In this document: positions 38,568 to 39,568 of the stretch, piece by piece
Layout: every line of letters begins with the position of its first letter
Position numbering within the stretch: the stretch's first letter is position 1
Source of the DNA: Escherichia coli
Lineage (GTDB): Bacteria; Pseudomonadota; Gammaproteobacteria; Enterobacterales; Enterobacteriaceae
Length of the DNA: 64,000 nt
Strand: one strand, 5' to 3'
Assembly: GCF_003334765.1 (NCBI RefSeq)
Contig: NZ_QOWT01000006.1
Program-made: the position numbers and the translations under genes
Notes under the pieces: model-generated
The model's input: only the letters and a program-made list of their open reading frames with translations
Database searches by the model: none
What the model was told of the DNA's origin: nothing

Positions 38568-39568
38568 ATGAGTAAAGTTGGTATTAACGGTTTTGGTCGT
38601 ATCGGTCGACTGGTGTTGGGTCGATTACTTGAAGTCAAAAGCAACATAGACGTTGTCGCTATTAATGATCTCACTTCCCCATAAATTCTCGCCTACCTGC
38701 TGAAACATGATTCAAACTACGGACCATTCCCCTGGAGCGTTGATTTTACGGAAGATTCACTTATCGTTGATGGGAAAAGTATCGCGGTTTACGCCGAAAA
38801 AGAGGCTAAAAATATTCCGTGGAAAGCGAAAGGTGCAGAAATCATTGTCGAATGTACTGGCTTTTATACCTCCGCCGAGAAATCGCAGGCGCATCTTGAT
38901 GCTGGTGCGAAGAAGGTGTTGATTTCCGCCCCTGCCGGTGAAATGAAAACTATCGTTTATAACGTCAATGACGACACTCTGGATGGCAACGACACCATTG
39001 TTTCCGTGGCGTCATGCACCACTAACTGTCTTGCGCCGATGGCCAAAGCCTTGCATGACAGTTTCGGGATAGAAGTCGGCACGATGACGACCATTCATGC
39101 CTATACTGGCACCCAGTCACTGGTGGATGGCCCGCGTGGTAAAGATTTACGTGCTTCACGCGCAGCGGCAGAAAATATCATTCCCCACACTACGGGGGCG
39201 GCAAAAGCCATTGGTCTGGTGATCCCGGAACTGAGCGGCAAACTGAAAGGTCATGCGCAACGCGTGCCGGTGAAAACAGGTTCGGTCACTGAACTGGTAT
39301 CGATTCTCGGAAAAAAGTGACTGCCGAAGAGGTGAATAACGCACTTAAACAAGCAACCACCAATAACGAGTCATTTGGTTATACCGATGAAGAAATAGTC
39401 TCTTCCGATATCATTGGCAGCCATTTCGGTTCGGTGTTTGATGCCACGCAAACGGAAATTACCGCCGTGGGCGATTTACAACTGGTGAAAACGGTCGCCT
39501 GGTACGATAACGAATATGGCTTCGTCACACAGCTTATTCGCACCCTCGAAAAATTCGCTAAACTCTGA
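38568..39568 (+). pseudogene. gapC: glyceraldehyde-3-phosphate dehydrogenase C, inactivated by a premature stop and a frameshift
   Basis: [16 protein letters not shown]... reads into TAA at codon 39 (38682-38684), where an intact GAPDH is expected to have a sense codon. Frame 0 continues to 39320, then the C-terminal segment ([11 protein letters not shown]...WYDNEYGF) is in another frame after the A6 run at 39311-39316. Confidence 0.8.

Follow-up and report, generated by a model that had tools for sequence, protein, structure and literature searches.

The gapC pseudogene of Escherichia coli: three changes consistent with a recent and natural loss in one sublineage

In Escherichia coli K-12, the coding sequence of gapC, a paralogue of the housekeeping glyceraldehyde-3-phosphate dehydrogenase (GAPDH) gene, is interrupted, and the regions on both sides of it look intact. 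Such a locus raises the questions of whether the gene is truly dead, how long ago it was lost, and whether its transcript or truncated product could still serve a purpose. We addressed these questions in a 64,000-nucleotide stretch of E. coli DNA (hereafter, the window), where gapC occupies positions 38568-39568 on the + strand. The gene measures 1001 bp there and 1002 bp where it is intact. Its neighbours are cybB, upstream and divergent on the minus strand, and aldA (39610-41049), which is convergent and also on the minus strand.

The gapC pseudogene as such is already known; it is listed in the K-12 reference annotation and has been described in the literature since 1998. Espinosa-Urgel and Kolter (1998) reportedly found gapC inactive in laboratory strains and intact in environmental isolates. 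All 1,001 bases of 38568-39568 are identical to gapC of MG1655 (b4493, 1489713-1490713, minus strand, an annotated pseudogene), formerly gapC_1/gapC_2 (b1417/b1416). The window and K-12 have the lesions and the neighbours cybB, rydC, and aldA in common; around gapC, 3 of 5,001 positions differ from MG1655 (38521, 40324, and 41124), and within the gene none. By these differences the window stems from a relative of K-12 and not from K-12 itself. Position 38521, which belongs to the gapC 5′ untranslated/promoter region, is C in the window and in the intact-allele strain B18271, and T in MG1655 and probably also in C600. On records identical to the window, the PGAP label reads 'type I glyceraldehyde-3-phosphate dehydrogenase' pseudogene, 'frameshifted; internal stop'.

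We put the probability at roughly 0.93 that 38568-39568 is a unitary gapC pseudogene, left by a recent natural loss through three changes in one E. coli sublineage. None of the results obtained spoke against pseudogene status. In the course of events that we propose, a functional allele in one sublineage (K-12 and related, mostly phylogroup-A-like strains) would have gained Arg18Gly, Lys39 to TAA, and a shortening of an A7 run to A6. Translation from the intact Shine-Dalgarno sequence and ATG would then end after 38 residues. The loss of gapC would have been neutral.

Reading frames and coding changes in gapC

The window gene was aligned with seven intact E. coli alleles, the nearest being that of strain B18271. 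An AGGAG Shine-Dalgarno sequence (38557-38561, + strand) precedes the ATG at 38568, and the NAD-binding GxGxxG motif is kept (INGFGRIGR, residues 6-14). Codon 39 is a TAA (38682-38684), which separates this motif from the catalytic pair; the intact E. coli alleles compared all read AAA (Lys) at this codon, the base change being 38682 A>T. After the TAA, the zero frame stays open until a TGA at 39318-39320, with a translation that is recognisable as GAPDH and contains the SCTTNC motif. In translation, the codons of the catalytic Cys150 (TGC in this motif, 39015-39017) and of the catalytic His177 (CAT, 39096-39098) are both unmutated. The second lesion is a -1 frameshift in a run of six A (39311-39316), a run that is A7 in each of the seven intact alleles. 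The C-terminal 83 codons (VTAEEV...EKFAKL, 39317-39568, with the stop at 39566-39568) lie in a frame offset by one base and match TIGR01534 positions 257-330. An uninterrupted frame of about 333 codons is absent from the window gene, owing to the TAA at codon 39 and the -1 frameshift after codon 250, and re-reading a single base at 39316 yields a protein equal to intact GapC save for residues 18 and 39.

Residue 18 reveals a third derived change, a previously unremarked missense mutation. At 38619, a C, present in all seven intact alleles, has become G, turning codon 18 from CGT (Arg) into GGT (Gly). As all seven intact alleles share Arg18 and GapA conserves it, Arg18Gly is probably damaging too. 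The original prediction, a gapC pseudogene with a normal start, a TAA at codon 39, and a frameshift in the A6 run standing before the conserved C-terminus, agrees with the sequence, with the intact-allele alignment, and with the RefSeq annotation. Its tally of two lesions was right as to both the TAA and the A6 run and overlooked Arg18Gly, which brings the derived changes to three. These details should be of use to anyone who wishes to repair or use the gapC locus.

The family assignment points in the same direction. Against TIGR01534 (GAPDH-I), the intact B18271 allele scores 447.3 bits, above the curated cutoff of 367.2, whereas the open reading frame fragments of the window score 35.7, 208.0, and 78.3 bits, none reaching that cutoff. 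The gapC sequence of the window is thus GAPDH-derived, but its encoded products fall short of GAPDH-I membership.

Elsewhere in the species the same locus is whole. An orthologous intact 1,002-bp gap coding sequence sits between cybB and aldA in B18271 (a seawater strain), BL21(DE3), O157:H7, and others, and the intact gene (BL21, HS, ATCC 8739, O157:H7; WP_000048667.1 and variants) encodes a 333-residue type I GAPDH. Compared with it, the window has Gly18 for Arg18, TAA for Lys39, and A6 for A7. GapA (b1779), the housekeeping GAPDH, belongs to the same family, TIGR01534, and conserves GxGxxG, SCTTNC, and the equivalent of Arg18, but it is only 46% identical and lies at another locus. Crystallised E. 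coli GAPDH chains (PDB 7C5F, 7C5H, and others) are identical to the intact GapC protein, and the set includes Cys to Ala and His to Ala variants at the catalytic residues; a literature search on the code 7C5F returned no relevant paper. In a search with the intact GapC protein, the nearest solved chains from outside E. coli were other GAPDH entries at 409-482 bits, among them enzymes of Gram-positive bacteria.

Age, spread, and order of the changes

The original prediction had read two lesions as a sign of long-standing inactivation. Our comparison lends no support to this reading. Only three sites separate the window gene from its nearest intact allele (38619 C>G, 38682 A>T, and A7>A6), and none of the differences is synonymous. 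HS and ATCC 8739 share this B18271 allele. Between pairs of intact alleles, synonymous changes number 2-43 and non-synonymous ones 0-5; the distance from pseudogene to intact gene is comparable to that between the closest intact alleles. Since there are just three differences and no synonymous one, the inactivation of gapC appears recent within one sublineage and young relative to the diversification of E. coli. What this adds to the earlier literature is that the loss would be very recent, from an intact allele that persists in such close relatives as HS and ATCC 8739. A general caution follows as well, in that two lesions do not equal an old loss.

Among the intact alleles, mean pN/pS was 0.029 over 21 pairs. 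Such a low value indicates that gapC, where intact, is functional and subject to strong purifying selection. The three changes that arose since the nearest intact allele are all damaging or non-synonymous, too few events by which to gauge relaxed constraint. An adaptive, selected inactivation, which came to mind because all three changes are damaging, was dropped on the same count of three events.

To follow the allele through the species, exact 61-mers centred on each change were counted in 5,426 independently assembled complete E. coli genomes. The TAA 61-mer was present in 1,152 genomes, the Gly18 61-mer in 1,147, and the A6 61-mer in 1,041. The pseudogene allele therefore occurs in about 19-21% of these genomes, and about four in five are without these lesions. 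In a sequence search, the 1,001-bp gapC was matched in 5,418 of the 5,426; four or five gapC matches sit on records that are classified as plasmid, not chromosomal. The carriers of the pseudogene allele comprise many K-12 laboratory derivatives together with isolates from pig, poultry, cattle, dog, crow, river water, and patients. The central 12 kb of the window is 100% identical to sequence from chicken, opossum, pig, wild bird, and human isolates. As it occurs in wild-animal and river isolates, the gapC pseudogene allele is natural and not a laboratory artefact, and it is older than laboratory domestication. Thus, an allele found in roughly one fifth of complete genomes is no product of domestication, which qualifies the phrase in the literature that 'laboratory strains accumulate mutations'.

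The order of the changes can be approached through partial combinations. The combination of Gly18 and TAA with A7 had three exact matches in the 5,426 genomes with two query designs (ETEC1706, HS-01, and ETEC1717), while that of Arg18 and Lys39 with A6, i.e., an allele with the frameshift only, had no exact match in the same set. Over 17 kb, HS-01 shows 105 substitutions and no other indel, and it looks like a genuine intermediate. ETEC1706 was discounted; its 17 kb contain five 1-base indels and two neighbouring genes annotated as 'frameshifted', and its A7 is probably an assembly error. That the first combination was found and the second was not suggests that the nonsense mutation (and/or Arg18Gly) probably preceded the frameshift, an order that we infer from essentially one credible genome.

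About 110 genomes have the TAA 61-mer and not the exact A6 61-mer (1,152 versus 1,041). With A7 in only three TAA carriers, some other difference close to the A run must account for these genomes. Three divergent carriers were checked (strains 219 and IH5 with G38889A, and RM10410 with G39269C), and their A-run 61-mer was unchanged. A record labelled 'DH5alpha' (NZ_CP026085.1) came up in the search with joined 61-mers; its match resembles an intact-type gapC, and not the K-12 pseudogene, over a 662-bp span with one mismatch. With 4.83 Mb, it exceeds the other DH5alpha records by about 0.2 Mb, and its label may be wrong.

Residual expression, recoding, and other readings

According to the original prediction, the promoter and terminator flanking gapC look intact, and this is the case. 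The divergent intergenic region between cybB and gapC (38416-38567, + strand), which comprises the gapC promoter and 5′ UTR with the Shine-Dalgarno sequence, has 0 mismatches over 152 nt in sequence comparison with the intact-allele strain B18271, and the 41-nt downstream intergenic region has 0 as well. A strong terminator hairpin is also present. Between the convergent gapC and aldA, positions 39576-39599 fold into a GC-rich hairpin with a 9-bp stem and a 6-nt loop, followed on the + strand by CUUUCACUCAUU. Its folding energy of -18.5 kcal/mol (z -4.78) was not equalled by any of 200 shuffled sequences. The hairpin sequence is the same in four of the six intact-allele strains compared and one base off in the other two. 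It is probably a terminator shared by gapC and aldA, as judged from the fold and the gene arrangement. A scan for consensus terminators did not call it, T being found at only 4 of the next 8 bases. A consensus sigma-70 scan of 38300-39700 likewise gave nothing above chance, with one site, inside cybB, versus 2.0 expected.

As promoter, 5′ UTR, and terminator are unchanged, the gapC locus would still be transcribed and regulated. Published observations on K-12 and other laboratory strains accord with this expectation. An E-sigmaS ChIP-seq peak lies between gapC_1 and cybB (PMC4447067), and gapC mRNA is measurable by qRT-PCR in BW25113 and altered on NlpE overexpression (PMC9600279). According to PMC2949598, which cites Espinosa-Urgel and Kolter 1998, environmental isolates have an intact gapC and laboratory strains a mutated one, whose protein is truncated and whose promoter still responds to the environment (see also PMC1796617 for the latter two points). 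Retention of promoter activity in K-12 is likewise indicated in statements of PMC2949598, PMC4447067, and PMC9600279.

As for the protein, the 38-aa peptide is the sole product expected at an appreciable level, to judge from the reading frames. The next in-frame start, a GTG at 38916, would open a 134-aa fragment that has neither the NAD-binding domain nor the C-terminus. Because a product of downstream re-initiation would be without the NAD-binding N-terminus, we infer that K-12-type gapC gives no functional GAPDH.

One feature of the frameshift lesion nevertheless deserves attention. The deletion turned GGA AAA AAA GTG into GGA AAA AAG TGA, and thereby happens to have formed a canonical slippery heptamer. 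The heptamer (A_AAA_AAG, 39311-39317) is of the X_XXY_YYZ type and in zero-frame phase, with the stop directly adjoining. Taken alone, the frameshift lesion may therefore be leaky. If a few ribosomes slipped by -1, then ochre-suppressor strains or conditions of high read-through could produce a trace of full-length GapC(R18G), an outcome to which we give only a slight chance.

A bolder form of this idea is a 'pseudo-pseudogene', which would make full-length GapC(R18G) at a low level, by read-through or suppression of TAA-39 combined with -1 slippage on A_AAA_AAG. The heptamer is indeed correctly phased (GGA AAA AAG) with a zero-frame TGA directly next to it, and a simulated -1 slip gives a protein that is intact GapC except at residues 18 and 39. 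The same heptamer is the dnaX shift site and ranks among the most shift-prone in E. coli (PMC5009743, PMC4066793, PMC9307594). Like the dnaX-type site, the gapC site combines this heptamer and its correct phase with a -1 frame that encodes the needed continuation. Unlike dnaX, it is the product of a recent deletion, lies 3′ of a nonsense codon, and has neither of the two stimulators. Upstream, no Shine-Dalgarno-like element is found about 10 nt before the heptamer (GGAG and AGGA are absent from 39290-39308), and downstream, the 84 nt that could hold a dnaX-like stem-loop fold at -12.5 kcal/mol (z -0.66), no better than shuffles. Unstimulated heptamers reach at most about 2-10 times a background of 0.055%, i.e., a few tenths of a percent (PMC4066793). 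Bypass of TAA-39, at which nearly all ribosomes would stop, is required in addition, and the joint yield would be negligible. Nor is the two-frame architecture conserved among relatives; in intact relatives the run is A7 and the frame continuous, and the frameshift without the TAA is absent from the nearest background. Moreover, Arg18, conserved even in GapA, has been lost as well. We regard this form as very improbable, somewhat more so than the trace product of a leaky lesion.

Just as improbable is a function newly acquired by the surviving transcript, acting as a regulatory RNA, or by the N-terminal peptide of 38 residues, acting as a small protein. The unchanged promoter region, Shine-Dalgarno sequence, and terminator would fit such a function, as would the detectable and regulated transcription in K-12 described in PMC9600279, PMC4447067, and PMC2949598. 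However, with zero neutral changes in 1 kb, the flanks of so recently dead a gene are unchanged because there has been too little time for decay; their identity is not evidence of selection or of a kept function. The terminator, placed between two convergent genes, may serve aldA too. No Rfam family was found inside gapC in searches at E≤1 over 37800-39700 and at the gathering threshold over the whole window. A Mu-gpT-DE match over the gapC Shine-Dalgarno sequence (19 bits, E 0.3) was dismissed as chance. The pseudogene clade is already gaining lesions (a deletion at 39554 in OkiPb01684) and substitutions (38889 and 39269). Furthermore, engineers use gapC as a neutral integration site, and strain constructions routinely replace it with no remark on the matter (PMC7677707). 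In the preferred reading of a recent, natural pseudogene, the transcript would be a function-free leftover.

Two further readings are highly implausible. A sequencing or assembly artefact, in which the length of the A run or the TAA itself would be a base-calling error, could be entertained since homopolymer indels are common assembly errors and a genome as rich in 1-base indels as ETEC1706 has A7, but it is refuted by the population data, TAA and A6 recurring in over 1,000 complete genomes that were assembled independently, the MG1655 reference included. A contingency locus, in which slipped-strand mispairing between A6 and A7 toggles gapC, could draw on the homopolymer at the frameshift site and on the three TAA-allele genomes with A7, but given the TAA upstream nothing would be gained by such switching, and phase-variable tracts are usually longer than six or seven A. 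The length of the run is also stable across thousands of genomes (A7 in only 3 of about 1,150 TAA carriers, at least one of them a poor assembly), and no genome of the nearest intact background has A6.

Further losses of gapC and neighbouring features

The gene has continued to change after its loss. OkiPb01684 carries the K-12-type allele with a third lesion, a 1-base deletion (T) at window position 39554. The clade also has private substitutions, namely G38889A in strains 219 and IH5, genomes of 99.9% identity, and G39269C in RM10410. Together, these changes indicate that decay goes on within the pseudogene clade. In OkiPb01697 (at 1417-2416 of its extracted locus), an otherwise intact-type allele has a separate frameshift near codon 39, with a shortfall of two bases. 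Both the OkiPb01697 and the OkiPb01684 lesions could be either real mutations or long-read assembly errors.

Insertion sequences have reached the locus in two strains. SCPM-O-B-7615 represents an independent loss; an IS1A has replaced all of gapC but its 5′ fifth, and also the 3′ terminus of aldA (2501-4678 of its extracted locus), and both genes are annotated as partial pseudogenes. In BL21(DE3) (NC_012971.2; 634-1331 of its extracted locus), the gapC frame is intact and the spacer between cybB and gapC is interrupted by an IS1A some 170 bp ahead of the ATG, an insertion that may separate gapC from its native promoter.

A few features of the upstream neighbourhood may be recorded as well. The longest cybB open reading frame starts at an ATG at 38415 (minus strand) and has 188 aa, as against the 176 aa of the RefSeq form (start 38379, MENKYS...); the extra 12 codons would reach into the gapC promoter region. 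Just past the 3′ end of cybB lies a full-length RydC small RNA (37775-37838, + strand; Rfam RF00505, 92.5 bits), the rydC of MG1655 (b4597). Farther upstream, a sok antitoxin RNA (37064-37215, + strand; RF01794, 109.7 bits) forms part of hokB/mokB/sokB, a type I toxin-antitoxin locus that lies upstream of ydcA and cybB.
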